NCBI RefSeq assembly: GCF_003790525.1
Contig: NZ_CP033635.1
DNA: 64,000 nucleotides
Reading direction: 5' to 3' (one strand)
DNA from: Escherichia coli
GTDB lineage: Bacteria > Pseudomonadota > Gammaproteobacteria > Enterobacterales > Enterobacteriaceae
Shown here in pieces: positions 6,643 to 39,165 of the stretch (position 1 is the first letter of the stretch; each line of letters begins with the position of its first letter). The position numbers and the translations under genes were made by a program. The notes beneath the pieces were generated by a model, which saw only the letters and a list, made by a program, of their open reading frames with translations, searched no databases and was not told where the DNA came from.

Positions 6643-7290
6643 ATGAACTATCGTATTATTCCGGTCACCGCATTCTCCCAGAACTGTTCATTGATCTGGT
6701 GTGAACAAACCCGACTGGCCGCACTGGTCGATCCTGGCGGCGATGCGGAAAAAATCAAACAGGAAGTTGATGCCAGCGGCCTGACACTGATGCAGATCCT
6801 GCTGACTCATGGTCATCTGGACCACGTTGGCGCAGCGGCGGAACTGGCGCAACATTACGGCGTGCCGGTTTTTGGCCCGGAAAAAGAAGATGAGTTCTGG
6901 CTGCAAGGCTTGCCTGCGCAAAGTCGTATGTTTGGTCTGGAAGAGTGCCAGCCGCTGACGCCAGATCGTTGGCTGAACGAAGGCGATACCATCAGCATAG
7001 GGAATGTGACTTTACAGGTGTTACATTGCCCTGGGCATACGCCGGGTCATGTCGTGTTTTTTGATGAGCGGGCAAGGCTGCTGATTTCTGGCGACGTTAT
7101 TTTCAAAGGCGGAGTAGGGCGCAGTGACTTTCCGCGTGGCGATCATAATCAACTGATTTCTTCAATCAAAGATAAATTGCTGCCCCTGGGGGATGACGTG
7201 ACATTTATTCCGGGTCACGGACCATTATCAACTCTTGGTTACGAACGCCTGCATAATCCCTTCCTGCAAGACGAAATGCCCGTCTGGTAA
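6643..7290 (+). CDS. gloC: Metallo-beta-lactamase-fold hydrolase GloC (YcbL), glyoxalase II-type, 215 aa
   Basis: THGHLDHVG metal-binding motif (HxHxDH) typical of the MBL fold; length matches YcbL. Confidence 0.88.
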
Positions 7291-7295
7291 AGACG

Positions 7296-7330
7296 TATAA
7301 AAAAGCCCGCTTTCACAGCGGGCTTCGTTT
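7296..7330. terminator. Bidirectional intrinsic terminator between convergent gloC and aspC
   Basis: Stem gcccgc...gcgggc flanked by an A-run on one side and a T-run on the other. Confidence 0.65.
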
Positions 7331-7339
7331 AACTAGCCT

Positions 7340-8530
7340 TTACAGCACGGCCACAATCGCTTCGCACAGCGGAGCCATGTTATCTGGCGTCATCCCGGCC
7401 ACGTTCACACGACCAGAAGCCACTGCATACACGCCAAACTCTTCACGCAGACGCAGTACCTGTTCTTTCGTCAGGCCACTGAAGGAGAACATACCGTTCT
7501 GTTTGATGATAAAGCTGAAGTCGCGGTTTGCCCCTTTTTCCTGCAGCGTATTGACGAACAACTGACGCATACGCTGAATACGCTGGCGCATATCAGTCAG
7601 CTCTTGTTCCCAAATCGCACGTAACGCATCGTTGCTCAGGATGGTGGCAACAACAGAAGCGCCGTGTGCTGGTGGGTTAGAGTAGTTAGCGCGAATCGCC
7701 GCTTTCATTTGGCTGAATGCGCGATCAACGGTCTCACTGTCAGCAGCAACCAGAGTACAAGCGCCAACACGCTCGTTGTACAGGCCAAAGTTTTTAGAGT
7801 AGGAACTGGCAACAATCAGCTCTTTATGCATAGCAGCGAAAGCGCGCAGTCCTTCAGCATCTTCTTCCAGACCACGGGCAAAACCCTGGTAAGCGAAGTC
7901 AAACAGCGGTAACCAGCCTTTCTCAACGGAAAGTTGTGCCAGTGTCTGCCATTGTTCCAGCGTAGGGTCGATACCGGTTGGGTTATGGCAGCAGCCATGG
8001 AACAGCACTACGTCGCCAGCCTGAGCTTCGTTCAGGCTGTTAATCAGTGCATCGAAGTCAAGGGTGTGATTTTCCGCATCATAATAAGCGTATTCACGAA
8101 CTTCCAGACCTGCAGAGTTAAAGACGCTCTTATGGTTCGGCCAGCTTGGGTTGCTCACCCACACACGCTTAACGCTGGTATTTTTTGCCAGGAAATCGGC
8201 AGCCACGCGTAGTGCGCCAGTGCCACCCGGAGTCTGTGCCGTGCGAGCACGTTTGTCATTGATCAGGGCGCTACCTTTACCAAACAGCAGTTCCTGAGTG
8301 CAGCGACCAAATTCAGGGATGCCGTCAATGCCGAGGTAATTTTTGGTGGTTTCATTTTCGAGCAAATACTGTTCAGCCTTTTTCACGCTGGTCAGTACCG
8401 GGGTTTTGCCCGTCTCATCTTTATAGACACCAATCCCGAGGTTAATTTTGCCGGGACGTTCATCGGCACGAAACAGATCGGCCAGGCCCAGAATCGGGTC
8501 GGCAGGAGCGGCGGTAATGTTCTCAAACAT
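7340..8530 (-). CDS. aspC: Aspartate aminotransferase, 396 aa
   Basis: Full-length match to AspC ([23 protein letters not shown]...), PLP-dependent aminotransferase class I. Confidence 0.96.
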
Positions 8531-8660
8531 GACGAGGTTCCATTATGGTTACAGAAGGGAAGTCCGCTATCAGGGTAACGGGAGATTTACAAAATTCCAA
8601 CTATTACTGATGAAAACGCAGGCTGTTTTTGCAAGACGTGAGATTGCTCTGGAAGGCATA

Positions 8661-8690
8661 AAAAAAACAGGACCAACGTCCTGTTTTTTC
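8661..8690 (-). terminator. Intrinsic terminator of ompF
   Basis: A-run, stem acaggac...gtcctgt, T-run immediately downstream of the ompF stop. Confidence 0.65.
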
Positions 8691-8714: not shown

Positions 8715-9788
8715 TTAGAACTGGTAAACGATACCCACAGCAACGGTGTCGTCTGAACCTACGCCCAGTTTGTTGTCAGAATCGATCTGGTTGATGATGT
8801 AGTCAACATAGGTGGACATGTTTTTGTTGAAGTAGTAGGTTGCGCCCACTTCAAAGTAGTTCACCAGATCAACATCACCGATACCTTCTACGTCTTTCGC
8901 TTTAGATTTGGTGTAAGCGATGGACGGACGCAGACCGAAATCGAACTGGTATTGCGCAACTAACAGAACGTCTTGCGTTTTGTTGGCGAAGCCGCCTTCA
9001 ATTGGCGTAGCGTTACGGGTTTCACCGTAGTTCGCTGCCAGGTAGATGTTGTTCGCGTCATACTTCAGACCAGTTGCCCACTGTTCAGCTTTTTTACCCT
9101 GACCGCGGAATTCGGCTTCCTGGGCGTCGGTACGGTCTGCTGCACCGTAAGCACCTACGATACCAAAGCCTTCGAATTCGTAGCTGATAGAGCCACCGAC
9201 GCCGTCGCCGTTGGAACGCTCAGGAATACCAGCACGTTCGTTTTTGCCCAGGTACTGAACGGCAAAGTTCAGGCCGTCAACCAGACCGAAGAAGTTGGAG
9301 TTACGATAGGTAGCAACGCCGCCTACACGACCAACGAAGAAGTCATCGCTGTATGCCGTGTCACCGCCAAACTCAGGCAGCATATCGGTGTAACCCAGTG
9401 CGTCGTAAACCACACCGTAGTTACGACCGTAGTCGATAGAACCCGCATCAGCGAATTTCAGACCTGCGAATGCCAGACGAGTTTTGTTACCTTTCTGGGC
9501 ATCAGCGCCTTCAGAGTTGTTACCCTGGAAGTTATATTCCCACTGACCGTAGCCGGTCAGATCGGAATTGATTTGTGTTTCCCCTTTAAAACCAAGACGG
9601 GCATAAGTTTTGTCGCCGTTTCCGCCGTAACTGTTTACACCATTGTCTTTAGAAAAATAATGCAGACCGACAGCTTTACCGTACAGATCTACTTTGTTGC
9701 CATCTTTGTTATAGATTTCTGCAGCGTTTGCAGTACCTGCTACTAACAGAGCAGGGACGATCACTGCCAGAATATTGCGCTTCATCAT
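8715..9788 (-). CDS. ompF: Outer membrane porin OmpF, 357 aa, non-K-12 allele
   Basis: Signal peptide [22 protein letters not shown], porin beta-barrel sequence ending in the C-terminal F; several loop segments differ from the 362-aa K-12 protein as I recall it. Confidence 0.95.
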
Positions 9789-9929
9789 TATTTATTACCC
9801 TCATGGTTTTTTTATGACACCTGCCACTGCCGTCAATAAGTTCTGTCAATAAAAATTTACGGAACTATTGATGAGAGTTTGGTGTCTTTATGTGTCTGCA
9901 GGCATCTTTCCATTCAAACTAACGTTTCG

Positions 9930-10000
9930 CTACCGTGAAAGTGCTACAAAGATAAAGATTTGGTTTCAAAAAGAAAAAATATGTAACCAAAAGTAAAATT
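9930..10000 (-). promoter_or_regulatory. ompF promoter-proximal OmpR binding region (F1-F3 sites)
   Basis: Minus-strand sequence TTTACTTTTGGTTACATATTTT (around + coordinates 9978-9998) matches the classic OmpR F1 site; position upstream of the ompF start fits the known promoter architecture. Confidence 0.6.
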
Positions 10001-10348
10001 TAAGGAACTTTGTGAACACCGTCATATTTCCATAGAAGCGTGATGATATTTACAGCAATTTTTATCTATTTATATGATTTCCTTATATTTAAATTAACTA
10101 AAAGGAAATTTTGTTTCTGATGGAAACTTTATCGACCTGGCACTAAATCCTCGTTCAGACATCCAGAACGCCAAAAAATAGTATGAAAATTGTGCTATCA
10201 GCTAAGAAAAAACTAATCCGCAATAAGAATGCGGATTATTTTTTGTGCGCAAATGTTGCAGTGTAATATTTCGTAACAGGATGATCGTTATGGCGGGGTT
10301 GCAAATAGATTGCTTGACTTAACAAACAGATAACTTGACAGAAAGGAT

Positions 10349-10389: not shown

Positions 10390-11790
10390 TTAGAAGCTGG
10401 CGTTACGCGGAGTACGTGGGAACGGAATCACATCACGCACGTTTTGCACACCAGTTACGTAAGCAATCAGGCGTTCAAAACCAAGACCGAAACCTGAATG
10501 CGGAACAGTACCGTAGCGACGCAGATCGCGATACCACCAGTAATCTTCTTTATTCAGGCCCATTTCCAGCATACGCTCGTCCAGCACGTCCAGACGTTCT
10601 TCACGCTGGGAGCCACCAATGATCTCACCGATGCCCGGAGCCAGAACGTCCATAGCCGCAACGGTTTTACCGTCTTCGTTAAGGCGCATATAGAACGCTT
10701 TAATATCTTTCGGATAGTTTTTAACCACTACCGGTGCTTTAAAGTGTTCTTCCGCCAGATAACGCTCATGCTCAGAAGAGAGATCAACGCCCCAGTAAAC
10801 CGGGTTTTCAAACTTCCTGCCGCAGTTTTCGAGAATGGTCACTGCGTCGGTGTAATCCACCTGCGCAAAATCGGCTTCAATGAAGCGTTCCAGACGTGAA
10901 ACGGCATCTTTATCTACGCGTTCAGCGAAGAATTTCATGTCGTCAGCGCGTTCTTCGAGAACCGCTTTGAAGACATATTTCAGCATGGCTTCAGCCAGAC
11001 CCGCGATATCGTTCAGGTTAGCAAACGCCACTTCCGGCTCCAGCATCCAGAATTCCGCCAGGTGACGGCTGGTGTTGGAGTTTTCAGCACGGAAAGTCGG
11101 GCCGAAGGTATAAATTTTGGATAATGCGCAAGCGTAGGTTTCGCCGTTCAACTGGCCAGATACGGTCAGGAAAGACTCTTTACCAAAGAAGTCTTTGTCG
11201 AAATCCACTTTGCCCTGATCGTTACGCGGCAGGTTTTCCAGATCCAGCGTAGAAACGCGGAACATTTCGCCAGCCCCTTCGGTATCAGACGCAGTAATCA
11301 GTGGCGTTGAAACCCAGAAGAATCCCTGCTCGTTAAAGAAGCGATGCAGCGCCTGCGCCAGCGTATGGCGAACGCGCGCGACGGCACCAATCAGGTTTGT
11401 GCGCGGACGCAGGTGAGCGACTTCACGCAGATACTCAATGCTGTGGCGTTTTGCCGCCATCGGGTAAGTGTCTGGATCTTCAACCCAACCAGCAACTTCA
11501 ACCTTGCTGGCCTGAATTTCAAATTGTTGCCCCTGGCCCGGCGACGCCACGACTTTACCCGTCACAATGACCGAGCAGCCGGTGGTCAGACGCAGGACGT
11601 CTTCATTGTAGTTGGGCAGAGAATTATTGATGACAGCCTGTACAGGATCAAAGCAGGAACCGTCATAAACGGCGAGGAAGGAGATGCCAGCTTTTGAATC
11701 TCGGCGGGTACGTACCCATCCGCGCACGGTGACTTCGCTGTCAACGGCTACGCGGCCCTGGAGTACGTCGGCTACAGGCACAACGCTCAT
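10390..11790 (-). CDS. asnS: Asparagine--tRNA ligase, 466 aa
   Basis: Class II aminoacyl-tRNA synthetase; start placed at [13 protein letters not shown], 15 codons inside the ORF-track start. Confidence 0.94.
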
Positions 11791-19749: not shown

Positions 19750-20317
19750 GGGCATTACCTCGCAGAGACAGTAGGTCAGGAACCTGAACATCGCGGCGGT
19801 GCAACGCCTGACAGAAAGTTTCTAGCGCGGTATCAAGACGGGTTTGCAGATTTGGCGTGAATAGCGGCTTGTGCTGGTAATCAATCACCTGCGAGTCATC
19901 GGCAAACACGCCGTGCAGGATCTCCTGGGCTTTCAACGCACTTAAAACTGGATTTAGGGCATAATCGACCGCCAGTAGATGAGCCACGGTGCCGCCCGTC
20001 GCCAGCGGCAACACGACTTTGCCTTGCAGCGCGCGTTCTGGCAGCAGGTCGAGGAGCGTTTTCAGTGCACCGGAATAGGCTGCTTTATACACAGGCGTGG
20101 CGACAATCAGCCCATCAGCCTGTTGCAGCTGTTCGGTGAAGGTCTTGAGTGCCGGACTATCGAAACGGGCATAAAGCAGATCTTCCGGGGCGAAGTTTTG
20201 CAGATTCCAGTGATAAATCTCTACATCCAGGCCATTTAGTTTTTCCCGCGCATATTCCAGCAAGGAGCTGGAGCGAGAAGGAAAGCGAGGACTTCCTGCC
20301 AGGGTGATGACACGCAT
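19742..20317 (-). CDS. ssuE: NADPH-dependent FMN reductase, 191 aa
   Basis: Flavin reductase fold; first gene of the ssu operon; 8-nt overlap with the ssuA start. Confidence 0.92.
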   Translation of the reverse strand: MRVITLAGSPRFPSRSSSLLEYAREKLNGLDVEIYHWNLQNFAPEDLLYARFDSPALKTFTEQLQQADGLIVATPVYKAAYSGALKTLLDLLPERALQGKVVLPLATGGTVAHLLAVDYALNPVLSALKAQEILHGVFADDSQVIDYQHKPLFTPNLQTRLDTALETFCQALHRRDVQVPDLLSLRGNAHA

Positions 20318-20671
20318 ACTCTCTCCTTATAACCAATTGTTCTTGTTTTGTTAACATTGATAACAATTCGGTCAGTCTGTCGGAGAGACAAGAGAATGCC
20401 AAATATAAATTTTGTGTATCTTTTTCTGAAAATGAACTAAGGATTGAGGGATATATATCACGTGTATTTATTTATTGGATATTCAATAGATGTTGAATCA
20501 ATGAATTACTCGTTCAGGTAATAAAGAAAGATTCATGGAATCTATAAATAAAAGATTTGTCACGTATTGAGTAAACACTACTGGTTTAAATGGCGGTCAT
20601 TTGTTGTTATTATTAAGTCCAATGTCATTTGCAGGCATTATCATATTTACGAAAAAATCAGGATGATAACG
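20318..20671. promoter_or_regulatory. AT-rich divergent control region between ssuE and elfA
   Basis: About 350 bp of strongly AT-rich sequence separating the divergent operons; compatible with the Cbl/CysB-dependent ssu promoter and H-NS-silenced elf promoter. Confidence 0.5.
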
Positions 20672-21211
20672 ATGAAAAAAAATGTATTGGCGGCGTTTAT
20701 AACTGTGATATGTACAACTTCAAGTGTTATGGCGGCTGATGATAATGCCATCACGGATGGCTCGGTTACGTTTAATGGTAAAGTCATTGCTCCTGCCTGT
20801 ACGCTGGTTGCTGCGACGAAAGATTCCGTGGTGACTTTACCAGATGTTAGTGCAACGAAGTTGCAAAGTAATGGTCAGGTTTCTGGGGTGCAAACTGATG
20901 TGCCAATTGCATTAGAAGATTGTGATATTACCGTAACAAAAAATGCAACGTTCACTTTTAATGGCACAGCGGATACTACGCAGATTACAGCGTTTGCTAA
21001 CCAGGCCTCATCTGAGGCTGCTACAAACGTGGCCCTGCAAATGTATATGAATGATGGTACAACGGTCATTACGCCAGACACAGAAACCGGGAATATTTTG
21101 TTGCAGAGTGGAAATCAAACGCTAACTTTTAAAGTAGATTATATCGCTACGGGTAAAGCGACGTCAGGTAATGTCAATGCGGTAACAAATTTCCATATTA
21201 ATTATTATTAA
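20672..21211 (+). CDS. elfA: Fimbrial major subunit ElfA (YcbQ), 179 aa
   Basis: Signal peptide MKKNVLAAFITVICTTSSVMA, conserved pilin cysteine pair, C-terminal aromatic donor strand; RBS (agga) 6-9 nt upstream of this ATG; the ORF-track upstream extension is rejected. Confidence 0.9.
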   Translation: MKKNVLAAFITVICTTSSVMAADDNAITDGSVTFNGKVIAPACTLVAATKDSVVTLPDVSATKLQSNGQVSGVQTDVPIALEDCDITVTKNATFTFNGTADTTQITAFANQASSEAATNVALQMYMNDGTTVITPDTETGNILLQSGNQTLTFKVDYIATGKATSGNVNAVTNFHINYY

Positions 21212-21241
21212 TATCAGCCATTAATTTTTAATTAATTAATA

Positions 21242-21277
21242 CCCTTCCAGTGTCCTGGAGGGGATATTCATTTTTTT
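21242..21277 (+). terminator. Intra-operon attenuator/terminator hairpin after elfA
   Basis: 9-bp stem cccuuccag / cuggagggg (one G-U pair) with a 5-nt loop followed by auauucauuuuuuu; such partial terminators after major pilin genes set the subunit:assembly-protein ratio. Confidence 0.6.
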
Positions 21278-21291
21278 AAGAGTGACTATTT

Positions 21292-21993
21292 ATGAAAACT
21301 TGCATAACAAAGGGAATTGTGACCGTAAGTTTAACGGCAATATTACTCAGCTGTTCGTTCACATGGGCGGCAGGTAAAGGTGGGGTCGGACTTGCAGCAA
21401 CACGTCTTGTTTATTCGGAAGGTGAAGAGCAAATTTCACTGGGTGTACGTAACACCAGTCCGGATGTTCCTTATCTGATTCAGTCATGGGTGATGACACC
21501 AGATAATAAAAAGTCAGCGGACTTTATTATTACACCACCGCTATTTGTGCTGAATCCGGCAAACGAGAACCTGCTACGCATTATGTACATTGGCGCGCCG
21601 TTGGCGAAAGACAGAGAAACTCTTTTCTTCACCAGCGTACGGGCAGTCCCTTCAACAACGAAGCGGGAAGAAGGCAATACCCTGAAGATTGCCACACAAA
21701 GCGTCATCAAACTTTTCTGGCGACCAAAAGGTTTAGCGTATCCCTTAGCCGAGGCTCCGGCGAAACTACGTTGCACTTCGTCAGCTGACATGGTTACGGT
21801 CAGTAACCCAACACCTTATTTCATTACCCTGACAGACCTGAAAATAGGTGGAAAAGTAGTTAAAAATCAAATGATTTCCCCCTTTGATAAATACCAATTC
21901 TCTCTGCCAATGGGTGCCAAAAACAGCAGCGTAACGTACCGAACTATCAATGACTACGGGGCGGAAACGCCGCAACTCAACTGTAAATCGTAA
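21292..21993 (+). CDS. elfD: Periplasmic pilus chaperone ElfD (YcbR), 233 aa
   Basis: PapD-like chaperone fold with signal peptide. Confidence 0.9.
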   Translation: MKTCITKGIVTVSLTAILLSCSFTWAAGKGGVGLAATRLVYSEGEEQISLGVRNTSPDVPYLIQSWVMTPDNKKSADFIITPPLFVLNPANENLLRIMYIGAPLAKDRETLFFTSVRAVPSTTKREEGNTLKIATQSVIKLFWRPKGLAYPLAEAPAKLRCTSSADMVTVSNPTPYFITLTDLKIGGKVVKNQMISPFDKYQFSLPMGAKNSSVTYRTINDYGAETPQLNCKS

Positions 21994-22017
21994 TTCGTCT
22001 TCATTTAAGAGAGCGAG

Positions 22018-24600
22018 ATGTATAGAACTCAACGACAACACAGCCTGTTAAGCTCTGGTGGAGTGCCATCGTTTATTGGTGGGCTGGTGGTGTTTGTGTC
22101 GGCAGCGTTCAATGAACAAGCTGAAACCTGGTTCGATCCAGCCTTTTTCAAAGATGATCCCTCAATGGTGGCTGATTTGTCTCGTTTCGAAAAAGGGCAA
22201 AAAATAACGCCAGGGGTTTATCGAGTCGATATTGTTCTGAATCAGACAATTGTAGATACGCGCAACGTCAATTTTGTTGAGATAACGCCAGAGAAGGGGA
22301 TTGCCGCCTGTTTGACGACTGAAAGCCTGGATGCAATGGGCGTGAATACTGATGCGTTTCCGGCTTTTAAACAACTGGATAAACAAGCGTGTGCGCCATT
22401 GGCGGAAATTATTCCGGATGCCAGCGTAACTTTTAATGTGAATAAACTCCGTCTGGAAATTTCAGTACCGCAAATCGCCATCAAAAGTAACGCTCGTGGT
22501 TATGTCCCCCCTGAACGTTGGGATGAAGGGATCAACGCGCTATTACTGGGATATTCTATTCATAGCAGCGCAGGTAGTGATTCTGGCGACAGCTATTTTC
22601 TGAATTTAAACAGTGGCGTTAATTTAGGCCCATGGAGATTGCGCAACAATTCAACATGGAGTCGCAGTAGTGGCCAAACCGCAGAATGGAAGAATCTCAG
22701 CAGCTATTTGCAGCGGGCGGTGATTCCATTAAAAGGCGAACTGACCGTCGGTGATGATTATACGGCAGGCGATTTTTTTGATAGCGTCAGCTTTCGTGGC
22801 GTGCAGCTGGCGTCAGATGACAACATGCTGCCAGACAGCTTGAAAGGGTTTGCGCCAGTGGTGCGTGGTATCGCCAAAAGCAATGCACAGGTAACGATTA
22901 AGCAAAATGGTTACACCATCTATCAAACTTATGTTTCGCCTGGCGCTTTTGAGATTAGTGATCTCTACTCTACGTCGTCGAGTGGTGATTTGTTGGTTGA
23001 AATCAAAGAAGCTGACGGTAGTGTCAATAGTTACAGTGTGCCCTTTTCCAGCGTGCCATTACTCCAGCGTCAGGGACGCATCAAATATGCGGTGACGCTG
23101 GCGAAATACAGAACCAATAGTAATGACCAGCAAGAAAGTAAATTTGCTCAGGCCACGCTGCAATGGGGTGGGCCGAGGGGAACGACCTGGTATGGCGGAG
23201 GGCAATATGCTGAATATTACCGTGCCGCTATGTTTGGTCTGGGTTTTAACCTCGGCGATTTCGGAGCAATTTCGTTCGACGCGACCCAGGCTAAAAGTAC
23301 GCTGGCAGACCAAAGTGAACATAAAGGGCAGTCATATCGTTTTCTGTATGCCAAAACGCTCAACCAATTGGGCACCAACTTTCAATTGATGGGCTACCGC
23401 TATTCGACGTCGGGTTTCTACACCCTTTCCGACACTATGTATAAACACATGGATGGCTACGAATTTAATGACGGTGATGATGAAGATACGCCAATGTGGT
23501 CGCGTTATTACAATTTGTTTTACACAAAACGTGGCAAACTGCAGGTCAACATCTCCCAGCAATTAGGCGAGTACGGTTCGTTTTATTTAAGCGGTAGCCA
23601 GCAAACTTACTGGCATACCGATCAACAGGATCGGCTATTACAGTTTGGCTACAACACGCAAATTAAAGATCTCTCGCTGGGGGTTTCCTGGAACTACAGT
23701 AAGTCCCGTGGTCAACCTGACGCTGACCAGGTGTTTGCACTTAATTTTTCCCTGCCGCTCAATCTGTTGCTCCCCAAAAGTAATGATAGCTATACCAGGA
23801 AAAAAAATTACGCCTGGATGACCTCTAATACCAGTATCGATAACGAAGGGCACACTACACAAAACCTGGGTTTAACGGAGACACTACTCGATGACGGTAA
23901 TCTGAGCTACAGCGTGCAACAGGGATATAACAGCGAGGGGAAAACGGCTAATGGTAGCGCCAGCATGGACTACAAAGGGGCGTTTGCAGATGCTCGAGTG
24001 GGCTACAACTACAGCGATAACGGCAGTCAACAACAACTGAACTACGCTCTTTCAGGCAGTTTAGTTGCCCATTCGCAGGGTATTACGTTGGGTCAATCAT
24101 TGGGTGAAACTAATGTCCTGATTGCCGCGCCAGGCGCCGAAAATACTCGTGTGGCGAACAGCACCGGGCTGAAAACTGACTGGCGTGGATATACCGTTGT
24201 GCCTTATGCCACTTCTTATCGGGAAAATCGAATTGCACTTGATGCGGCGTCGTTAAAACGTAACGTGGATCTTGAAAATGCCGTAGTAAACGTGGTTCCC
24301 ACCAAAGGGGCATTGGTTCTGGCGGAGTTCAATGCCCATGCGGGGGCTAGGGTATTAATGAAAACATCAAAGCAGGGTATGCCGCTGAGATTTGGTGCAA
24401 TGGCAACACTGGATGGCGCACAAACAATTAGCGGTATCATTGATGATGATGGTTCGCTCTATATGTCTGGTTTGCCGGCGAAGGGAACGATAACTGTACG
24501 CTGGGGCGACGCTCCCGATCAAATTTGTCATATCAGTTACGAGCTTACCGAACAACAAATTAACGCTGCGATTACGCGGATGGATTCAGTATGCGAATAA
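22018..24600 (+). CDS. elfC: Outer-membrane fimbrial usher ElfC (YcbS), 860 aa here
   Basis: Large usher-family beta-barrel protein with conserved C-terminal cysteine pair; an in-frame stop 4 codons upstream fixes the start. Confidence 0.9.
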
Positions 24601-25661
24601 TTTCAGGGGATAGTAGTGTGTTAAGACTCCGGCTTCTTTTGACTGCTGTTTTAATGCTGTGGGGATTTCATGCCGCCGCTTATACCGGGCAGTGTCATAC
24701 CACTCAGGGGAATCCGTATATTGGCGTCAATTTTGGCGTTAAAACCCTGGAGGAGGAAGAGAATACGGCTGGAAAAGTCAAAGATGAATTTTATCAGTGG
24801 AGTGAATCGAATGATTATTATGTTTCCTGCGATTGCGATAAAGACAATGTCAGAAGTGGTCTATGGGCATTCGCTGCGGATTCTCCGTTAGTTTATTTGG
24901 GCGACAACTGGTACAAAATTAACGATTATCTTGCCGCAAAGGTGCTATTAGGAGTGAAAGGTAACACACCTTCGGCCGTACCTTTTGAAAATCTCGGTAC
25001 AGGAAGTGATACCCGATGGCATATTTGCGATCCCGGTGGTCAACGTTTGGGCGGCAAGGGGGCAAGCGGCAATAGCGGAAGTTTTTCACTGAAAATATTG
25101 CAGCCGTTTGTCGGTTCGGTCGTCATTCCTCCTATGGCGCTGGCGCGACTATATGAGTGTTACAACATACCCGCAAGTGATTCCTGCACGACTACAGGTA
25201 CACCGGTTTTAGTGTATTACCTGTCTGGTACGATTAATTCACTTGGCTCATGTTCTGTCAATTCTGGAGAGACAATAGAGGTTGATTTGGGGGATGTATT
25301 TGCTGCCAATTTCCGTGTTGTAGGGCATAAACCGCTTGGATCCAGAACGGCAGAACTCTCAATTCCAGTCAGGTGTAATACCGGAAACGCAGAGCTGGTT
25401 AATGTTAATTTGAGTCTGACGGCAACCAGTGATCCCGATTATCCTCAGGCAATCAAGACATCACGACCAGGTGTCGGTGTTGTGGTCACCGACAGCCAAA
25501 ACAACATTATTTCGCCTGCCGGTGGCACACTGCCGCTATCCATCCCTGACGACGCGGACAGCTTCGCTCGAATGAATGTTTATCCGGTCAGCACGACAGG
25601 TGTACCACCGGAAACCGGGAGCTTTGAAGCCACAGCAACGGTGAGAATAAACTTTGACTGA
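24591..25661 (+). CDS. elfG: Fimbrial tip adhesin-like protein ElfG (YcbT), 356 aa
   Basis: Two-domain fimbrial protein (lectin-like N-terminal part plus pilin domain); 10-nt overlap with elfC. Confidence 0.88.
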
Positions 25662-25672
25662 TATGTGAACGT

Positions 25673-26215
25673 ATGAAAAAGAACACAATATTTCAAGTCG
25701 TTATCTTATCATTCACTTTGCTTTATATGCATGTCGGGATAGCTGGACCTGAACAAGTCAGTATGCATATTTATGGTAATGTGGTCGATCAGGGCTGTGA
25801 TGTTGCCACCAAAAGTGCATTACAAAATATTCATATTGGTGATTTTAATATCAGTGATTTTCAGACCGCGAATACCGTAAGCACTGCTGCTGATTTGAAT
25901 ATCGATATCACCGGTTGTGCCGCTGGTATTACTGGCGCGGACGTCCTTTTTAGCGGCGAGGCTGACACCCTTGTGCCGACACTGCTCAAATTAACTGACA
26001 CAGGCGGAAGCGGTGGTATGGCAACGGGGATTGCTGTGCAAATTCTTGATGCGCAAAGTCAGCAAGAAATCCCGCTCAATCAGGTCCTACCTCTTACGCC
26101 CTTAAAAGCCGGGGATAACACACTCAAATATCAACTTCGTTATAAGTCCACAAAGGCGGGAGCAACGGGCGGTAATGCGACGGCGGTTCTCTATTTTGAT
26201 CTGGTTTACCAGTGA
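25673..26215 (+). CDS. ycbU: Fimbrial-like minor subunit YcbU, 180 aa
   Basis: Pilin-like with signal peptide and C-terminal Y-rich strand (LYFDLVYQ). Confidence 0.88.
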   Translation: MKKNTIFQVVILSFTLLYMHVGIAGPEQVSMHIYGNVVDQGCDVATKSALQNIHIGDFNISDFQTANTVSTAADLNIDITGCAAGITGADVLFSGEADTLVPTLLKLTDTGGSGGMATGIAVQILDAQSQQEIPLNQVLPLTPLKAGDNTLKYQLRYKSTKAGATGGNATAVLYFDLVYQ

Positions 26216-26222
26216 AGGAGTG

Positions 26223-26738
26223 ATGTTGAAACAGATAATCTGGATTCTGTTCTTACTGGGATTAACGGGGGGCTGTGAGCTATTTGCCCATGATGGCACG
26301 GTCAACATTAGCGGATCGTTTCGCCGTAATACATGCGTGCTGGCACAGGATAGCAAGCAAATCAATGTGCAGTTAGGCGACGTCTCGCTGACACGTTTTT
26401 CTCATGGGAATTATGGCCCGGAGAAATCGTTCATCATTAATTTGCAGGATTGCGGAACAGATGTCAGCACGGTTGACGTCACCTTTTCAGGAACCCCCGA
26501 CGGAGTACAGAGCGAAATGCTGTCCATTGAAAGTGGTACGGATGCAGCCAGTGGGCTGGCAATTGCAATTCTGGATGATGCGAAGATATTGATTCCGCTT
26601 AACCAGGCGAGTAAAGACTACAGCCTACATAGCGGTAAGGTGCCATTAACTTTTTACGCGCAATTGCGACCTGTCAATAGCGATGTGCAGTCGGGTAAAG
26701 TGAATGCCAGCGCGACATTTGTACTTCATTATGACTAA
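26223..26738 (+). CDS. ycbV: Fimbrial-like minor subunit YcbV, 171 aa
   Basis: Pilin-like; RBS aggag precedes the ATG at 26223; the ORF-track extension is rejected. Confidence 0.87.
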   Translation: MLKQIIWILFLLGLTGGCELFAHDGTVNISGSFRRNTCVLAQDSKQINVQLGDVSLTRFSHGNYGPEKSFIINLQDCGTDVSTVDVTFSGTPDGVQSEMLSIESGTDAASGLAIAILDDAKILIPLNQASKDYSLHSGKVPLTFYAQLRPVNSDVQSGKVNASATFVLHYD

Positions 26739-27441
26739 TACGTGGAACAGATTGGCGCTCTTGATTTTCGCCGTTTTATCGCTGCTGGTGGCGAGTGAAT
26801 TGCAGGCAGGAGTGGTGGTCGGCGGAACGCGATTTATCTTTCCGGCAGACAGAGATTCGATATCTATTTTATTGACTAATACCAGTCAGGAATCCTGGCT
26901 TATTAACAGTAAAATCAATCGCCCAACGCGTTGGGCTGGGGGTGAAGCGTCGACAGTACCAGCACCATTACTGGCCGCTCCGCCACTTATTCTCCTGAAG
27001 CCCGGTACTACAGGCACATTGCGCTTGCTGAGAACGGAAAGCGACATCTTGCCCGTGGATCGCGAAACGCTATTTGAGTTAAGCATTGCCAGCGTGCCAT
27101 CCGGCAAAGTTGAAAATCAGAGCGTAAAAGTGGCGATGCGCTCGGTATTTAAACTGTTCTGGCGACCCGAAGGTTTGCCGGGCGACCCGCTGGAAGCTTA
27201 TCAACAATTACGCTGGACACGGAATTCGCAGGGTGTACAACTCACTAACCCAACGCCTTACTACATTAACCTGATTCAGGTGAGCGTAAATGGTAAAGCG
27301 TTAAGTAATGCGGGAGTTGTGCCACCTAAAAGCCAGCGTCAGACAAGCTGGTGTCAGGCTATAACACCGTGTCATGTCTCCTGGCGGACGATAAATGATT
27401 ACGGCGGGTTGAGTGCAAAGAAGGAGCAAAATCTGCCCTGA
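26731..27441 (+). CDS. ycbF: Second periplasmic pilus chaperone YcbF, 236 aa
   Basis: PapD-like chaperone; start overlaps the ycbV stop. Confidence 0.87.
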   Translation: MTNTWNRLALLIFAVLSLLVASELQAGVVVGGTRFIFPADRDSISILLTNTSQESWLINSKINRPTRWAGGEASTVPAPLLAAPPLILLKPGTTGTLRLLRTESDILPVDRETLFELSIASVPSGKVENQSVKVAMRSVFKLFWRPEGLPGDPLEAYQQLRWTRNSQGVQLTNPTPYYINLIQVSVNGKALSNAGVVPPKSQRQTSWCQAITPCHVSWRTINDYGGLSAKKEQNLP

Positions 27442-27451
27442 AACAGGCTCG

Positions 27452-27465
27452 GAAAACGTTTGCGC
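27452..27465 (+). promoter_or_regulatory. Candidate PurR operator upstream of pyrD
   Basis: gaaaacgtttgcgc matches the palindromic PurR box core (GCAAACGTTTTC); pyrD is a known PurR regulon member. Confidence 0.5.
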
Positions 27466-27551
27466 TTTTTTTGCCACAGGTCAATTCCCTTTTGGTCCGA
27501 ACTCGCACATAATACGCCCCCGGTTTGCACACCGGGAATCCAGGAGAGTTC

Positions 27552-28562
27552 ATGTACTACCCCTTCGTTCGTAAAGCCCTTTTCCAGCTCGATCCAGAGC
27601 GCGCTCATGAGTTTACTTTTCAGCAATTACGCCGTATTACCGGAACGCCGTTTGAAGCACTGGTGCGGCAGAAAGTGCCTGCGAAACCTGTTAACTGCAT
27701 GGGCCTGACGTTTAAAAATCCGCTTGGTCTGGCAGCCGGTCTTGATAAAGACGGGGAGTGCATTGACGCGTTAGGCGCGATGGGTTTTGGATCTATCGAG
27801 ATCGGTACCGTCACGCCACGTCCACAGCCAGGTAATGACAAGCCGCGTCTCTTTCGTCTGGTAGATGCCGAAGGTTTGATCAACCGTATGGGCTTTAATA
27901 ATCTTGGCGTTGATAACCTCGTAGAGAACGTAAAAAAAGCCCATTATGATGGCGTCCTGGGTATTAACATCGGCAAAAATAAAGATACGCCGGTGGAGCA
28001 GGGTAAAGATGACTATCTGATTTGTATGGAAAAAATCTATGCTTATGCGGGATATATCGCCATCAATATTTCATCGCCGAATACCCCAGGACTACGCACA
28101 CTGCAATATGGCGAAGCGCTGGATGATCTCTTAACCGCGATTAAAAATAAGCAAAATGATTTGCAAGCGATGCACCATAAATATGTGCCGATCGCAGTGA
28201 AGATCGCGCCGGATCTTTCTGAAGAAGAATTGATCCAGGTTGCCGATAGTTTAGTTCGCCATAATATTGATGGCGTTATTGCAACCAATACCACGCTCGA
28301 TCGTTCTCTGGTTCAGGGAATGAAAAATTGTGATCAAACCGGTGGCTTAAGTGGTCGTCCGCTTCAGTTAAAAAGCACAGAAATTATTCGCCGCTTGTCA
28401 CAGGAATTAAACGGTCGCTTACCGATCATCGGTGTTGGCGGCATTGACTCGGTTATCGCTGCGCGTGAAAAGATTGCTGCGGGGGCCTCACTGGTGCAAA
28501 TTTATTCTGGTTTTATTTTTAAAGGTCCGCCGCTGATTAAAGAAATCGTTACCCATATCTAA
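27552..28562 (+). CDS. pyrD: Dihydroorotate dehydrogenase (quinone), 336 aa
   Basis: Matches PyrD from [21 protein letters not shown]; class 2 DHODH. Confidence 0.95.
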
Positions 28563-28594
28563 TTATTTCTTCGAATTCCTCTTTATAAGATAAT

Positions 28595-28628
28595 CAGGGC
28601 TTTATTTTAAGCCCTGGTTGTTTTATAT
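28595..28628 (+). terminator. Intrinsic terminator of pyrD
   Basis: Stem cagggct...agccctg followed by gttgtttt. Confidence 0.6.
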
Positions 28629-28735
28629 TCATCACTGTTGCTTATTTAGACATTTTGTACTTTTATTGTTGAGGTTATTAAGCGAAGCGACAATGGATTG
28701 TGTTGCTGCGGTTTTATAGGGTAGGGGAGAGGCAA

Positions 28736-29278
28736 ATGCGAATTAAACCAGACGATAACTGGCGTTGGTATTACGATGAAGAGCACGATCGAATGATGCT
28801 CGATTTAGCCAATGGTATGCTATTTCGCTCACGTTTTGCGCGCAAAATGTTGACTCCAGATGCCTTTTCTCCCGCAGGCTTTTGCGTTGACGACGCCGCG
28901 CTCTATTTCTCATTTGAAGAAAAATGCCGCGATTTTAATTTATCTAAAGAACAAAAAGCCGAACTGGTGCTTAATGCGCTGGTAGCAATTCGTTATCTCA
29001 AACCGCAAATGCCGAAAAGCTGGCATTTTGTTTCCCATGGTGAAATGTGGGTGCCCATGCCGGGCGATGCGGCCTGCGTTTGGTTGAGCGACACTCACGA
29101 GCAAGTCAATTTGCTGGTCGTTGAATCTGGCGAAAATGCCGCACTATGCCTGCTGGCACAACCCTGCGTTGTTATAGCGGGTCGCGCGATGCAGCTGGGC
29201 GACGCCATCAAAATCATGAACGACAGGCTGAAACCGCAGGTTAATGTTGACAGCTTCAGCCTCGAACAGGCAGTTTAA
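28736..29278 (+). CDS. zapC: Cell division protein ZapC (YcbW), 180 aa
   Basis: Matches ZapC from [24 protein letters not shown]. Confidence 0.9.
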
Positions 29279-30384
29279 CGCGTCAGCTTAAGTGCAGTCT
29301 TCGGTACACAACTACAGCAAAGAATAGTGCCATCATCACCCATTGCTGATTTTTTCAGCGGCGTGACTTCGCCTTCTAAAAGCTGAACACGGCAACTTCC
29401 ACAAATGCCCGCGCGGCAAGAATAAGGGATACGAATTCCCTGATTTTCTAATTGCTCCAGCAGCACCTGTTGGTTATTTCCACGAAATGCCTGTCCCTGC
29501 CAGTCAATATCTACGTTTGCGTCCGGTTGTTGCGTGATGTTGGCAGTATCATCGGCGGCACCTGCGCCGTAAATTTTAGCTGGAGCCGTTGCCAGAATTT
29601 CCACCTCATCGCCAACGCGAATCACGCCGCTATTACGGGCAATTAAATTCTGACCAAAATCGACATCGCCGTTATCCTGGGCAGTACGGAAAGATTGCAG
29701 CGTTTTTAATGGTTCGCCTGCCGGATGTTTTTGCCCTTTTTCTGGGCTGACGGTGGTGAAAATACAGCGGCTACAAGGCTTAACCACATCAAACACGACA
29801 TCACCAATGCGAATCACTTTCCAGCTATCTTCTTCCCAGGCCGATGCACCGGAAACCACCAGATTGGGGCGGAATTGCTCCATTTTTACACTGGCCGGAC
29901 AACGTTGTTGGAGATCACGTAACGAGGCCTCGTTAGCAAGAAGGTAAGGATAACCATCAGCAAATGACAGGGGTACAGTGTTGTGGCGTTTCACGCGCCG
30001 GGTCATTTGTGGCCCCACCCAGCGTAATTGCACTTCGCGGGAGAAAAATCCACTTAGCCATTTGTTGATCGCGTCTGGCGCAATTCGCGCGGTAAAATGT
30101 GTGCCCCAAACTTCGGTTGGTGCGTCTTGTGTGGCGAAATCAGCAAAACGAACATATGCACTACTGCCATCTGGTGCGGTGAGATGCAAGCCATCATGCA
30201 CGGGTGAAGGAGTAAACCGTACCATTAGCGGAAACTGGCGAGCGGTAATAAACGTACCGTCAGGTTCCGTGATCATAAAGATGCGATCGAAGGCCAGACC
30301 ACTGACATCTGCCAGGGTATGTGTAAGACCAATGCCGCGCATCGATTTAACAGGATGAATAAAAAGCCGGGTTAATGTCGCCAC
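29275..30384 (-). CDS. ycbX: MOSC-domain protein with C-terminal 2Fe-2S ferredoxin domain, YcbX, 369 aa
   Basis: C-terminal plant-type ferredoxin cysteine pattern (CRAGICGSC...C); N-terminal MOSC beta-barrel; stop overlaps the zapC stop. Confidence 0.9.
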
Positions 30385-30481
30385 GGTGCGGTCCTCAAAT
30401 GAAAATAAGCCCTCAACTTTATGACATGACGCGCTTATTAGCTATAATGCGCAACAATTTTCTTAGAGTAAAAGTGACGAT

Positions 30482-32590
30482 ATGAATTCTCTGTTTGCCA
30501 GTACGGCCCGTGGGCTGGAAGAGCTGTTAAAAACTGAACTGGAAAACCTGGGGGCCGTTGAATGCCAGGTGGTTCAGGGTGGGGTCCATTTCAAGGGCGA
30601 CACACGGCTTGTTTACCAGAGCCTGATGTGGAGCCGCCTGGCCTCGCGTATTATGTTGCCGCTGGGCGAGTGTAAGGTTTACAGCGATTTAGACCTCTAT
30701 CTCGGTGTTCAGGCGATCAACTGGACAGAGATGTTTAATCCTGGCGCGACCTTCGCTGTCCACTTCAGTGGTTTGAATGACACCATACGCAACAGTCAGT
30801 ACGGTGCGATGAAAGTGAAAGACGCGATCGTCGATGCTTTCACGCGGAAAAATCTGCCGCGTCCAAATGTTGATCGCGATGCGCCGGATATCCGCGTTAA
30901 CGTCTGGCTGCATAAAGAAACTGCCAGTATCGCCCTTGATCTCAGTGGTGATGGTTTACATCTGCGTGGCTATCGCGATCGTGCTGGTATTGCGCCGATC
31001 AAAGAAACCCTGGCAGCCGCGATTGTTATGCGATCCGGCTGGCAGCCAGGAACACCGCTGCTCGATCCGATGTGTGGTTCCGGTACGTTGCTGATTGAAG
31101 CGGCGATGCTGGCGACCGATCGCGCACCAGGCTTGCACCGTGGACGTTGGGGCTTTAGCGGCTGGGCACAGCATGATGAAGCCATCTGGCAGGAAGTGAA
31201 AGCAGAAGCGCAAACTCGCGCCCGTAAAGGCCTGGCGGAGTACAGCTCCCATTTCTACGGTTCGGACAGCGACGCACGGGTGATTCAACGTGCGCGCACT
31301 AACGCCCGTCTTGCGGGGATTGGTGAACTGATCACCTTTGAGGTGAAAGATGTCGCGCAACTGGCCAATCCGCTGCCGAAAGGGCCGTACGGTACAGTGT
31401 TGAGCAACCCGCCATACGGTGAACGTCTGGACAGCGAACCGGCGCTGATTGCGCTGCATAGTCTGCTGGGCCGAATCATGAAAAACCAGTTCGGTGGCTG
31501 GAATCTCTCTTTGTTTAGTGCCTCGCCGGATCTGCTCAGCTGCCTGCAGCTGCGTGCAGACAAACAGTACAAGGCGAAAAACGGCCCGCTGGACTGCGTA
31601 CAGAAAAACTACCATGTTGCCGAAAGCACACCAGACAGCAAACCGGCGATGGCAGCGGAGGACTACGCCAACCGTCTGCGTAAGAACCTCAAAAAATTCG
31701 AGAAGTGGGCTCGTCAGGAAGGAATTGAATGTTACCGCCTGTATGACGCCGATCTGCCGGAATATAACGTTGCCGTTGACCGTTATGCCGACTGGGTGGT
31801 GGTGCAGGAGTATGCGCCGCCAAAAACTATTGATGCGCACAAAGCGCGTCAGCGTCTGTTCGATATTATCGCTGCAACCATTTCGGTACTGGGGATTGCG
31901 CCAAACAAACTGGTACTGAAAACCCGTGAACGCCAGAAGGGCAAAAATCAGTACCAGAAACTGGGCGAGAAGGGCGAGTTTCTCGAAGTCACCGAATATA
32001 ACGCTCACTTGTGGGTGAACCTGACGGATTACCTCGATACCGGTCTGTTCCTCGATCACCGTATCGCCCGTCGTATGCTCGGTCAGATGAGCAAAGGCAA
32101 AGATTTCCTCAACCTGTTCTCTTATACCGGCAGCGCCACCGTGCACGCGGGATTAGGCGGTGCACGCAGCACCACCACCGTGGATATGTCGCGTACTTAT
32201 CTGGAGTGGGCAGAACGCAACCTGCGTCTGAATGGCTTAACCGGGCGTGCGCATCGCCTGATTCAGGCCGATTGCCTGGCGTGGTTGCGTGAGGCAAATG
32301 AACAGTTCGATCTGATCTTTATCGATCCGCCAACCTTTTCTAACTCAAAACGAATGGAAGATGCGTTTGATGTTCAGCGCGATCATCTGGTGCTGATGAA
32401 AGATTTGAAACGTCTGCTGCGTGCAGGTGGGACGATCATGTTCTCGAACAACAAACGCGGCTTCCGTATGGATCTCGACGGCCTGGCGAAACTGGGACTG
32501 AAAGCACAAGAAATTACGCAAAAAACGCTCTCCCAGGATTTCGCCCGTAACCGCCAGATCCACAACTGCTGGCTGATTACCGCAGCCTGA
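30482..32590 (+). CDS. rlmL: Bifunctional 23S rRNA methyltransferase RlmKL (m2G2445 / m7G2069), 702 aa
   Basis: Two fused methyltransferase modules: N-terminal THUMP plus SAM-binding DPMCGSGT with NPPYGERL motif, and a C-terminal second Rossmann module with DPPTF. Confidence 0.93.
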
Positions 32591-32601
32591 AAGGAATAGT
32601 A

Positions 32602-34509
32602 ATGTCATTAATCAGTATGCATGGCGCATGGCTGTCGTTCAGCGACGCGCCGCTTCTCGATAACGCAGAACTGCATATCGAAGATAACGAACGTGTTTGT
32701 CTGGTAGGTCGTAACGGCGCAGGCAAATCGACGTTAATGAAGATCCTCAACCGTGAACAGGGGCTGGATGACGGTCGCATTATTTATGAGCAAGATTTGA
32801 TTGTAGCTCGTCTGCAACAGGATCCGCCGCGTAACGTTGAGGGTAGCGTTTATGATTTCGTTGCCGAAGGCATTGAAGAACAAGCGGAATATCTGAAACG
32901 CTATCACGATCTTTCGCGCCTGGTGATGAACGACCCGAGCGAGAAAAATCTCAACGAACTGGCGAAGGTTCAGGAACAGCTGGATCACCACAACCTGTGG
33001 CAGCTGGAAAACCGCATCAACGAAGTGCTGGCGCAACTGGGATTAGATCCTAATGTTGCGCTGTCGTCGCTTTCCGGCGGCTGGTTGCGTAAAGCGGCAT
33101 TAGGACGCGCGCTGGTGAGCAATCCGCGTGTATTGCTGCTCGACGAACCGACTAACCACCTGGATATTGAAACCATCGACTGGCTGGAAGGGTTCCTCAA
33201 AACCTTCAATGGGACAATTATTTTCATTTCCCACGACCGTTCGTTTATCCGCAATATGGCGACGCGCATTGTTGATCTCGATCGCGGCAAGCTGGTGACC
33301 TATCCAGGGAATTACGACCAGTACCTGCTGGAAAAAGAAGAAGCCCTGCGCGTGGAAGAATTACAAAATGCCGAGTTCGATCGCAAACTGGCGCAGGAAG
33401 AGGTGTGGATCCGCCAGGGGATCAAAGCGCGCCGTACCCGTAATGAAGGCCGCGTACGCGCCCTGAAAGCAATGCGCCGTGAACGTAGCCAGCGCCGTGA
33501 GGTCATGGGGACGGCAAAGATGCAGGTGGAAGAAGCCAGCCGCTCCGGAAAGATCGTTTTCGAAATGGAAGACGTTTGCTACCAGGTTGACGGTAAGCAA
33601 CTGGTGAAAGATTTTTCTGCCCAGGTTCTACGTGGCGACAAAATTGCCCTGATTGGCCCGAATGGGTGCGGCAAAACCACGCTGCTGAAACTGATGCTCG
33701 GTCAGCTTCAGGCGGACAGCGGGCGTATTCACGTTGGCACCAAACTGGAAGTGGCTTATTTCGATCAGCACCGTGCGGAACTGGATCCCGATAAAACGGT
33801 GATGGATAACCTTGCCGAAGGTAAGCAAGAGGTGATGGTTAACGGCAAGCCACGCCACGTATTGGGCTATTTGCAGGACTTCCTGTTCCATCCGAAACGG
33901 GCGATGACGCCGGTACGTGCGCTTTCTGGCGGTGAGCGGAACCGCTTGCTGCTGGCGCGTTTGTTCCTCAAACCAAGCAACTTATTGATTCTTGACGAAC
34001 CGACCAACGATCTTGATGTCGAAACGCTGGAACTGCTGGAAGAACTGATCGACAGCTACCAGGGCACGGTATTGCTGGTAAGCCACGATCGTCAGTTTGT
34101 CGATAACACCGTTACAGAATGCTGGATCTTCGAAGGCGGCGGTAAAATTGGTCGTTATGTCGGCGGTTATCATGATGCCCGTGGTCAGCAAGAGCAGTAT
34201 GTGGCGCTCAAACAGCCTGCGGTGAAAAAAACCGAAGAAGCCGCCGCGGCAAAAGCAGAAACTGTAAAACGCAGCAGTAGCAAACTAAGCTATAAATTGC
34301 AGCGCGAACTGGAGCAGCTACCGCAATTGCTTGAAGATCTGGAGGCGAAGCTGGAAGCCCTACAGACGCAGGTGGCGGATGCTTCCTTCTTCAGTCAGCC
34401 CCATGAGCAGACACAAAAAGTGCTCGCTGATATGGCTGCTGCAGAGCAGGAGCTGGAGCAAGCCTTTGAACGCTGGGAGTATCTTGAAGCGTTAAAAAAT
34501 GGTGGCTGA
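32602..34509 (+). CDS. uup: ABC-F family ATPase Uup, 635 aa
   Basis: Two ABC cassettes (Walker A GRNGAGKST and GPNGCGKTT) with a C-terminal coiled-coil/DNA-binding tail; 11 bp after rlmL. Confidence 0.94.
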   Translation: MSLISMHGAWLSFSDAPLLDNAELHIEDNERVCLVGRNGAGKSTLMKILNREQGLDDGRIIYEQDLIVARLQQDPPRNVEGSVYDFVAEGIEEQAEYLKRYHDLSRLVMNDPSEKNLNELAKVQEQLDHHNLWQLENRINEVLAQLGLDPNVALSSLSGGWLRKAALGRALVSNPRVLLLDEPTNHLDIETIDWLEGFLKTFNGTIIFISHDRSFIRNMATRIVDLDRGKLVTYPGNYDQYLLEKEEALRVEELQNAEFDRKLAQEEVWIRQGIKARRTRNEGRVRALKAMRRERSQRREVMGTAKMQVEEASRSGKIVFEMEDVCYQVDGKQLVKDFSAQVLRGDKIALIGPNGCGKTTLLKLMLGQLQADSGRIHVGTKLEVAYFDQHRAELDPDKTVMDNLAEGKQEVMVNGKPRHVLGYLQDFLFHPKRAMTPVRALSGGERNRLLLARLFLKPSNLLILDEPTNDLDVETLELLEELIDSYQGTVLLVSHDRQFVDNTVTECWIFEGGGKIGRYVGGYHDARGQQEQYVALKQPAVKKTEEAAAAKAETVKRSSSKLSYKLQRELEQLPQLLEDLEAKLEALQTQVADASFFSQPHEQTQKVLADMAAAEQELEQAFERWEYLEALKNGG

Positions 34510-34638
34510 TCGCAAAATAGTCGATTTAAACAGAGACAGCTGACAACGGTAAAATTGCCTGATGAACTGGGTTTATCAGGCATGAAAACCAACACTTTGT
34601 TCGTCATCTGTAAAATAGCGCATCATTAAGGAGTACCA

Positions 34639-35892: not shown

Positions 35893-35896
35893 CAGT

Positions 35897-38097: not shown

Positions 38098-38352
38098 TTA
38101 TAAAGATTTGTAAATATAACCGCCTCCGGTATGTTGCCTGAGGCGGTTTTTTTGTCTCTAACGTGCGGAAAAAGTTGTTCCTCTTCACATTTTTTGTACA
38201 ACTGACATGCCCGTGTAGCTCACAAATATGACAGTGGCGTGAATTTTGCGCATTGACGGCAGTTATGATTCGCGGTATTGCTTAACTGTGATTGCACATT
38301 TAGTAATCACTGTTTTCTTTTCCACCAGAAACCAGTATGAGGGAAACGAGGC

Positions 38353-39164: not shown

Positions 39165-39165
39165 G

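Follow-up and report, generated by a model that had tools for sequence, protein, structure and literature searches.

The ompF locus and its product

The window, by which we mean the whole stretch of DNA analysed here (64,000 nucleotides of Escherichia coli, contig NZ_CP033635.1), carries an ompF gene on the minus strand between asnS (10390..11790, minus strand) and aspC (7340..8530, minus strand), in the order asnS-ompF-aspC found in K-12. The features of the gene as a whole are as follows.

8715..9788, minus strand: ompF coding sequence, an intact ATG-initiated open reading frame of 357 amino acids plus stop; F-type ('CE10 group') allele, with a protein identical to RefSeq WP_000977905.1
9723..9788, minus strand: signal peptide, codons 1-22; both protein and DNA are identical to K-12
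9789..9993, minus strand: 5' untranslated region and proximal promoter; over the 205 nt before the ATG the one difference from K-12 is an A-run shorter by a base (7 against 8), at about 9807-9813
8659..8686, minus strand: likely ompF terminator, a hairpin and then a T-run just past the stop codon (AACAGGACGTTGGTCCTGTTTTTTTT), read directly from the sequence

The encoded protein scores 751.9 bits against the NCBIfam OmpF equivalog model NF007446 (cut-off 583), and the models of its paralogues remain below their own cut-offs (PhoE, 486 against 599; OmpC, 465 against 484). It matches Pfam Porin_1 (PF00267) at 456.9 bits (E = 6e-137), aligns end to end with the solved K-12 OmpF structures (PDB 3hw9/2omf) at 92% identity, and shows in its AF2 model the 16-strand barrel pattern expected of OmpF. 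The Sec signal peptide, the AEIYN that follows it and the C-terminal ...VYQF are the same as in K-12, and the DNA of the gene is 100% identical to that of strain 50579417. An earlier sequence-only reading had called the gene an ompF allele of 357 amino acids, five shorter than the 362 of K-12; the equivalog score, the synteny and the alignment to solved OmpF bear out the call, and the lengths are as it gave them. That difference in length is the sole point in favour of the gene being a porin paralogue (OmpC, PhoE, OmpN or NmpC), a gene in decay or a pseudogene rather than OmpF proper. Such an identity is excluded by the OmpF score, far over its cut-off with the PhoE and OmpC models under theirs, by the synteny with K-12 ompF, and by the intact reading frame, the conserved promoter, and the constriction loop L3 and termini identical to those of K-12; we give it a negligible probability. 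An assembly artefact was also considered for this gene and rejected.

The upstream segment at 9789..9993 spans what we take to be the region of the OmpR F1-F3 sites (predicted sites, named after those of the K-12 ompF promoter). A consensus promoter and terminator scan listed neither the OmpR-dependent ompF promoter nor the terminator hairpin, and both were read from the sequence; the near-identity to K-12 indicates that the OmpR-dependent promoter is conserved.

Loop differences and the diverged central tract

We aligned the window protein globally with OmpF of MG1655 (362 amino acids; P02931, PDB 2OMF and 3HW9), and found 336 of the 363 aligned positions to be identical. The 27 differing columns comprise 20 substitutions, an insertion of one amino acid in loop L4 and a gap of six amino acids in loop L6. 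The two proteins share their locus, promoter, signal peptide, L3, L7, L8, charged pore residues and last 92 residues (266-357), all without change except for the one-base difference in the promoter A-run. The regions of the gene that carry the comparison are listed below, in coding order and with codons numbered from the start of the precursor.

8996..9669, minus strand: divergent recombinant tract, gene nt 120-793 (codons 40-265), 674 nt, which holds every difference from K-12
9618..9650, minus strand: segment coding for L1, codons 47-57; G48D and E51V, with K47-G48-N49 becoming K-D-N (alignment plus AF2 DSSP boundaries)
9486..9524, minus strand: segment coding for L2, codons 89-101; T99K, with the latching residue E93 (mature E71) kept
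9435..9455, minus strand: periplasmic end of strand 4, turn and start of strand 5, codons 112-118; Y112F, V115A and F118I
9315..9425, minus strand: constriction loop L3, codons 122-158, including PEFGG; no amino-acid and 8 synonymous differences, dS 0.38
9204..9245, minus strand: L4, codons 182-195; K-12 ERD-TARR becomes ERAGIPER in the window, one amino acid longer
9093..9134, minus strand: L5, codons 219-232; six substitutions within K-12 NLQEAQPLGN
8982..9014, minus strand: L6, codons 259-269; K-12 TPITNKFTNTSG becomes TPIEGG in the window, six amino acids shorter, the 18-nt insert of K-12-type alleles being absent

Surface loops account for 80 residues and hold 16 of the 21 changed ones, the other 255 residues holding five (Fisher one-sided p = 2e-7), with strand and loop boundaries taken from DSSP on an AF2 model built from a 52-sequence alignment (mean pLDDT 74.8, a medium confidence, and low in L3). 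The loops affected, counting the L6 gap, are L1, L2, L4, L5 and L6. The five changes outside the loops are conservative and fall either at the end of a strand or in the periplasmic turn: M60K at the top of strand 2, tyrosine to phenylalanine at residue 205 at a strand end, and the three substitutions of codons 112-118, a site that corresponds to the periplasmic 'HVR2' of bioRxiv 10.1101/2021.09.21.461324. The pore residues K38, R64, R104, R154, D135 and E139 (precursor numbering), the PEFGG motif and the C-terminal YQF are all those of K-12.

These results agree with the earlier reading in its main observation, that the differences are concentrated in the loops, and the peptide strings that it quoted are all present in the translated reading frame; the allele is not identical to the K-12 reference, and the differences do not fall mainly in barrel strands. 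Its statement that signal peptide and barrel strands are conserved is exact for the signal peptide and nearly so for the strands, given the five exceptions at strand ends and turn. Elsewhere in the same window, ompA is likewise a non-K-12 loop variant.

At the DNA level the differences from K-12 are confined to the central part of the gene. The tract from nt 120 to nt 793 contains 85 substitutions and 21 indel positions (a nucleotide divergence of 11%), and the gene has none in its first 119 nt or its last 281 nt; the probability of such clustering under a uniform distribution is about 6e-18. In the 3 kb on either side of ompF, the window differs from K-12 by about 1 nt per 100. Identity to K-12 is patchy along the tract, at 78-87% near L1, in the area of L2 and the periplasmic turn, and near L4-L5, and 94-96% between these patches. 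Within the tract we counted 58 synonymous and 27 non-synonymous differences, with 27.5 of the synonymous ones in strand codons and 8 in L3. Pairwise Nei-Gojobori estimates against K-12 give dS 0.44, dN 0.048 and dN/dS 0.11 for the tract, and dS 0 outside it; by comparison, dS between K-12 and four other E. coli alleles is 0.03-0.08. Split by region, strand and turn codons give dS 0.32 (dN/dS 0.05 in strands) and L3 gives dS 0.38 (dN/dS 0). The surface loops give dS of about 0.96 and dN/dS of 0.17, with values of 0.15-0.24; dS is near saturation there and the test accordingly weak. Alignment or sequencing artefacts do not explain the synonymous differences, since over 480 independent genomes carry the identical sequence.

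Because the central tract carries these 58 synonymous differences, we read it as a deeply diverged recombined segment, inside which the loop differences are carried, rather than being recent substitutions on a K-12 background. The model implicit in the sequence-only reading was the latter one, in which a K-12-like ompF had recently gained point mutations and a deletion in its loops under positive selection, and the position of the amino-acid changes in the loops speaks for it. It is refuted by the synonymous divergence, with 58 synonymous beside 27 non-synonymous differences, many of them in strand codons and in the invariant L3, and the state of L6 also argues against it. The earlier reading described a shortened segment in this allele, here L6, a polarity that comparison with other species probably reverses: the short L6 is common to Escherichia albertii, a second divergent Escherichia genome, SCPM-O-B-8794 (hereafter L081), Citrobacter, Superficieibacter and other genera, and occurs in about half of the OmpF proteins from other genera, and it is the K-12-type alleles that carry an AT-rich 18-nt insert (ACTAATAAATTTACAAAC). 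Since E. albertii, L081 and other genera have the short state, it is most likely ancestral and the K-12 L6 probably derived, by an insertion in K-12-type alleles and with no deletion here. Both L6 lengths are present within Citrobacter koseri and within C. amalonaticus. We consider recent mutation of a K-12-like gene very improbable.

Distribution, recombination and origin of the F-type class

The deeply diverged segment belongs to an allele that is common among E. coli. The full gene was found at 99% identity or higher in 484 of 5,426 complete E. coli genomes, and its 801-nt core in 486 of them (about 9%). None of the 5,426 genomes has a core identity between 90% and 99%, all others lying at 86.9-89.0% and being 15 nt longer. 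The F-type is a discrete allele class, the only common one of 357 amino acids and, of all the common OmpF classes in E. coli, the most divergent. The window OmpF has the class-defining loop strings of L1, L4, L5 and L6 together with the 357-amino-acid length, its variable core DNA is 100% identical to that of CE10, IAI39 and SMS-3-5, and the protein is identical in nine carriers (IAI39, SMS-3-5, CE10, 50579417 and five from humans, cattle and a hawk). IAI39, SMS-3-5 and CE10 are phylogroup F reference strains and ST405 belongs to phylogroup D, and we infer the phylogroup spread of the allele from these few named strains, out of about 485 carriers. Strain 50579417 is of ST405 (PMC6046176). Positions 20000-40000 of the window match SMS-3-5 at 99.9% identity, which places the window in that strain or in a near relative. 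Published work divides E. coli OmpF into five groups, those of MG1655, SE15, ATCC 8739, E2348/69 and CE10, and places its hypervariable regions in L1, the periplasmic turn, L4, L5 and L6, ascribing them to local recombination and selection (bioRxiv 10.1101/2021.09.21.461324; follow-up PMC12175518). The window allele is that of the 'CE10 group', with no difference at the sequence level, and the published hypervariable regions are the sites at which it differs from K-12.

Homologous recombination has swapped pieces between the tract and K-12-type alleles. The allele of HS-C agrees with the window at all 14 consecutive informative sites of nt 120-213, and with K-12 at the informative sites from nt 237 on, save one that matches neither; it has an F-type L1 on a K-12-type gene, and its breakpoint lies between nt 213 and nt 237. 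Two more alleles each have a run of five F-type sites. Among the nine carriers, ompF is nearly invariant (pi 0.0005, at most 1 nt in 1,074) relative to the flanking aspC (pi 0.012, at most 25 nt in 1,191) and asnS (pi 0.0035, at most 16 nt in 1,401). The gene is mosaic by its sharp tract borders at nt 120 and nt 793, by the alleles that share single patches, and by the discordance between ompF and its flanks. The F-type class diverged long ago but coalesces recently among its own members, and its flanks vary, differing by up to 2%. A near-identical ompF on differing flanks fits either recombinational spread of the allele or recombination that shuffles the flanks around a conserved allele.

We looked for the origin of the tract in a scan of species representatives. 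The OmpF proteins of E. albertii (NBRC 107761, L010) and L081 have 356 amino acids and share 94% identity with the window protein, more than K-12 does (about 92.5%), and among the matches listed Citrobacter and other genera come next at 87% protein identity or less. E. albertii and L081 share with the window the short L6, TPI(K/T)GGFANKTQD, and differ from it in having a K-12-like L1 and L4, and an L5 that is K-12-like or near to it. At the nucleotide level, identity over the core is 88.8% between the window and K-12, 88.9% between K-12 and E. albertii, 92.1% between K-12 and L081, 84.8% between the window and E. albertii, and 86.8% between the window and L081. Neither E. albertii nor L081 is the donor, because the window core is further from them than from K-12. 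Among the matches listed in the scan, none was closer to the window core than 88.8%, and each patch reached at most about 85% identity to sequences from outside E. coli; those matches did not include E. fergusonii, E. marmotae or E. ruysiae. By these distances the F-type tract is about as deep a lineage as E. albertii, with no sampled genome as its donor. In the best 120 full-length homologues, the nearest foreign match to L4 is ERAGIPTRSNG of Dryocola (10 of 11 residues), and motif matching found no close relative of L5 outside the allele class. A protein search with the L4-L6 segment alone returned seven fragmentary matches.

Proposed function and selection

Phages (K20, T2-like and evolved lambda) use OmpF as receptor or entry route, as do colicins, the microcins B17, C and PDI, and contact-dependent inhibition (CDI) toxins, and it is a main entry route of beta-lactams. 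We read the window gene, with a probability of roughly 0.85, as a functional ompF of a known discrete class, mosaic in structure, that makes the usual trimeric porin with an unchanged pore and an altered surface, and that most likely persists as an escape from antagonists; the data show the identity, anatomy, distribution, mosaic structure and recombination of the allele, and we infer the selective agents and phenotypes in this reading. The product would be the usual trimeric 16-strand general-diffusion porin, and from the kept E93, L3 and pore residues it should form trimers and conduct small hydrophilic solutes. Its pore is expected to be that of K-12, with matching solute permeation, including beta-lactam entry, because L3, PEFGG, the charged pore residues, the L2 latch, the YQF terminus and the signal peptide are those of K-12. 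The external face, built from L1, L2, L4, L5 and L6, would be altered, so that the same channel would offer a different receptor surface. Serving as the docking site for phages, microcins, colicins, CDI toxins and antibodies, an OmpF with a different surface would escape antagonists tuned to the common form, and alternative surfaces would be kept, and moved between lineages by recombination, most likely through altered recognition by such antagonists.

The literature on individual antagonists lends this proposal some detail. Binding determinants of phage K20 have been placed in L5-L7 of OmpF, as cited in PMC12032242 and bioRxiv 10.1101/2021.09.21.461324, and T2-like phages with Gp38 use OmpF (PMC12032242). 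The action of microcin PDI requires the L1 motif K47-G48-N49, according to a review (PMC7680869), and G48D is predicted to break this motif in the window allele. CdiA-EC536 uses OmpC-OmpF heterotrimers, and OmpF from other species still worked as co-receptors (PMC5056734), so not every antagonist tells OmpF alleles apart. Selection on the allele by phages, bacteriocins or antibodies is plausible.

The pattern could also have arisen by neutral change or relaxed constraint, with the tract coming from a diverged Escherichia-like lineage or being an old lineage-specific allele, and with loops that merely tolerate change. In keeping with this, dN/dS is below 1 in every region, the synonymous divergence of the tract is at the level seen between species, and from genus to genus these loops differ freely in both length and sequence. 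Pairwise Nei-Gojobori comparison with K-12 gave no signal of dN above dS at loop codons, where dS is near saturation; with dN/dS this low, the loops could differ because they were less constrained during a long divergence, and not because selection diversified them, and yet, because loop dS is so close to saturation, we do not take the pairwise result as disproof of selection. Against neutrality, the near-identical allele occurs on different flanking haplotypes, including that of one strain outside phylogroup F (ST405), which suggests spread; recombinants within the gene reshuffle single loop patches at appreciable frequency; and codon-based and population studies in the literature have reported that ompF is under positive selection or evolves as a mosaic. 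We regard the neutral account as possible, if unlikely.

Returning to escape from antagonists as the preferred reading, a more specific history can be put forward, which we offer tentatively and would ourselves expect to be wrong more often than right. The F-type tract may have entered recently by introgression from an Escherichia-like lineage that is not sampled, or it may be a balanced allele of great age lately swept within its class; it would now be spreading across phylogroups F and D by recombination since its altered surface gives escape from OmpF-targeting antagonists, such as microcin PDI (through G48D). The L1 patch alone has moved into K-12-type alleles of the HS-C type, as would be expected if the patch itself is selected.

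The allele, its loop pattern and its mosaic mode of evolution have already been published, and in these respects our analysis confirms known biology. In the literature, loop-localised ompF variation is ascribed to phage or immune pressure (bioRxiv 10.1101/2021.09.21.461324; PMC2884548, citing Petersen 2007), and ompF is listed among the positively selected genes with loop-concentrated changes in earlier genome scans (PMC2884548, citing Petersen 2007). Other mosaic porin and receptor genes (E. coli ompC, ompA, fhuA and lamB, Neisseria porB and Yersinia ompF) resemble ompF in their conserved barrels and hypervariable surface loops, and in a limited set of loop 'cassettes' reshuffled through local recombination. 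More than 220 protein variants are recorded for OmpC (PMC5056734), and the classes of OmpF are far fewer. What is added here consists of the synonymous-divergence figures, the exact tract with its breakpoints, the polarity of L6, the near-monomorphic state of the class and the prediction for microcin PDI.

The overall significance of these results is modest. Since the pore is unchanged, we would expect no effect on antibiotic permeability. The surface type of OmpF bears on the host range of phages in therapy, on bacteriocin-based decolonisation and on vaccine epitopes, and the carriers of this allele include strains of clinical note, among them 50579417 (ST405), the neonatal-meningitis strain CE10 and the multidrug-resistant SMS-3-5.

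Recombinant and length-variant forms of ompF

The HS-C-type ompF (locus L003) is a clean recombinant of the window's allele class (F-type, the 'CE10 group') and the K-12 type, being F-type at nucleotides 120 to 213, which make up the L1 patch, and K-12-type from nucleotide 237 on. Five F-type sites in succession are also found in ompF of strains 2018-11-3CC and 2017.09.02CC (loci L004 and L005). A few F-type carriers have length variants (matches H4, H105 and H106), with a full gene of 1078 rather than the usual 1074 nt, or a core of 800 or 805 rather than 801 nt; these are probably frameshifted, inactivated copies of ompF, a type of lesion that is frequent in drug-resistant isolates.

Upstream region and 5' UTR

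Five substitutions relative to K-12 fall in the distal upstream region of ompF (window ~10237..10277), two of them within GTTACGGAATATTACATTGC, which we take to be the repressing OmpR site F4; the proximal F1-F3 region does not differ from K-12. The distal changes could slightly alter the osmoregulation of ompF. In the 5' UTR, the A-run directly 5' of the Shine-Dalgarno sequence (window ~9807..9813) has seven bases, as against eight in K-12, and presumably lies inside the target region of the micF antisense RNA.

Chromosomal surroundings and ompA

The surroundings include the following features:

window ~7290..7340: aspC-gloC spacer, short form
surrounding 50 kb: ldtD, pepN, ssu, the elf/ycb fimbrial operon, pyrD, pqiABC, fabA, ompA, sulA, helD and others, to hyaA
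window 41651..42703, minus strand: ompA, a non-K-12 surface variant in the same window as ompF

K-12 and HS-C have an aspC-gloC spacer about 171 bp longer than that of the window, whose short form recurs in 536, IAI39, O157 and 50579417; the two forms probably differ in whether they contain a REP/BIME-type element. The surrounding 50 kb is ordinary core chromosome, and E. coli SMS-3-5 matches window 20000..40000 at 99.9% identity. Among the 5,426 genomes, only 148 match the 20 kb of window 20000..40000 at 99% identity or more, compared with 486 that carry the ompF allele.

The ompA product has 350 residues, compared with 346 in K-12, and sequence comparison places nearly all differences in the external loops (N to P in L1, SVE to DNI in L2, and VYG----KN to VPGGASTKD in L3, each from K-12 to the window); the barrel and periplasmic domain are those of K-12 except for four scattered single substitutions. 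The window's ompA is a member of the known OmpA allele family (PMC9560509).
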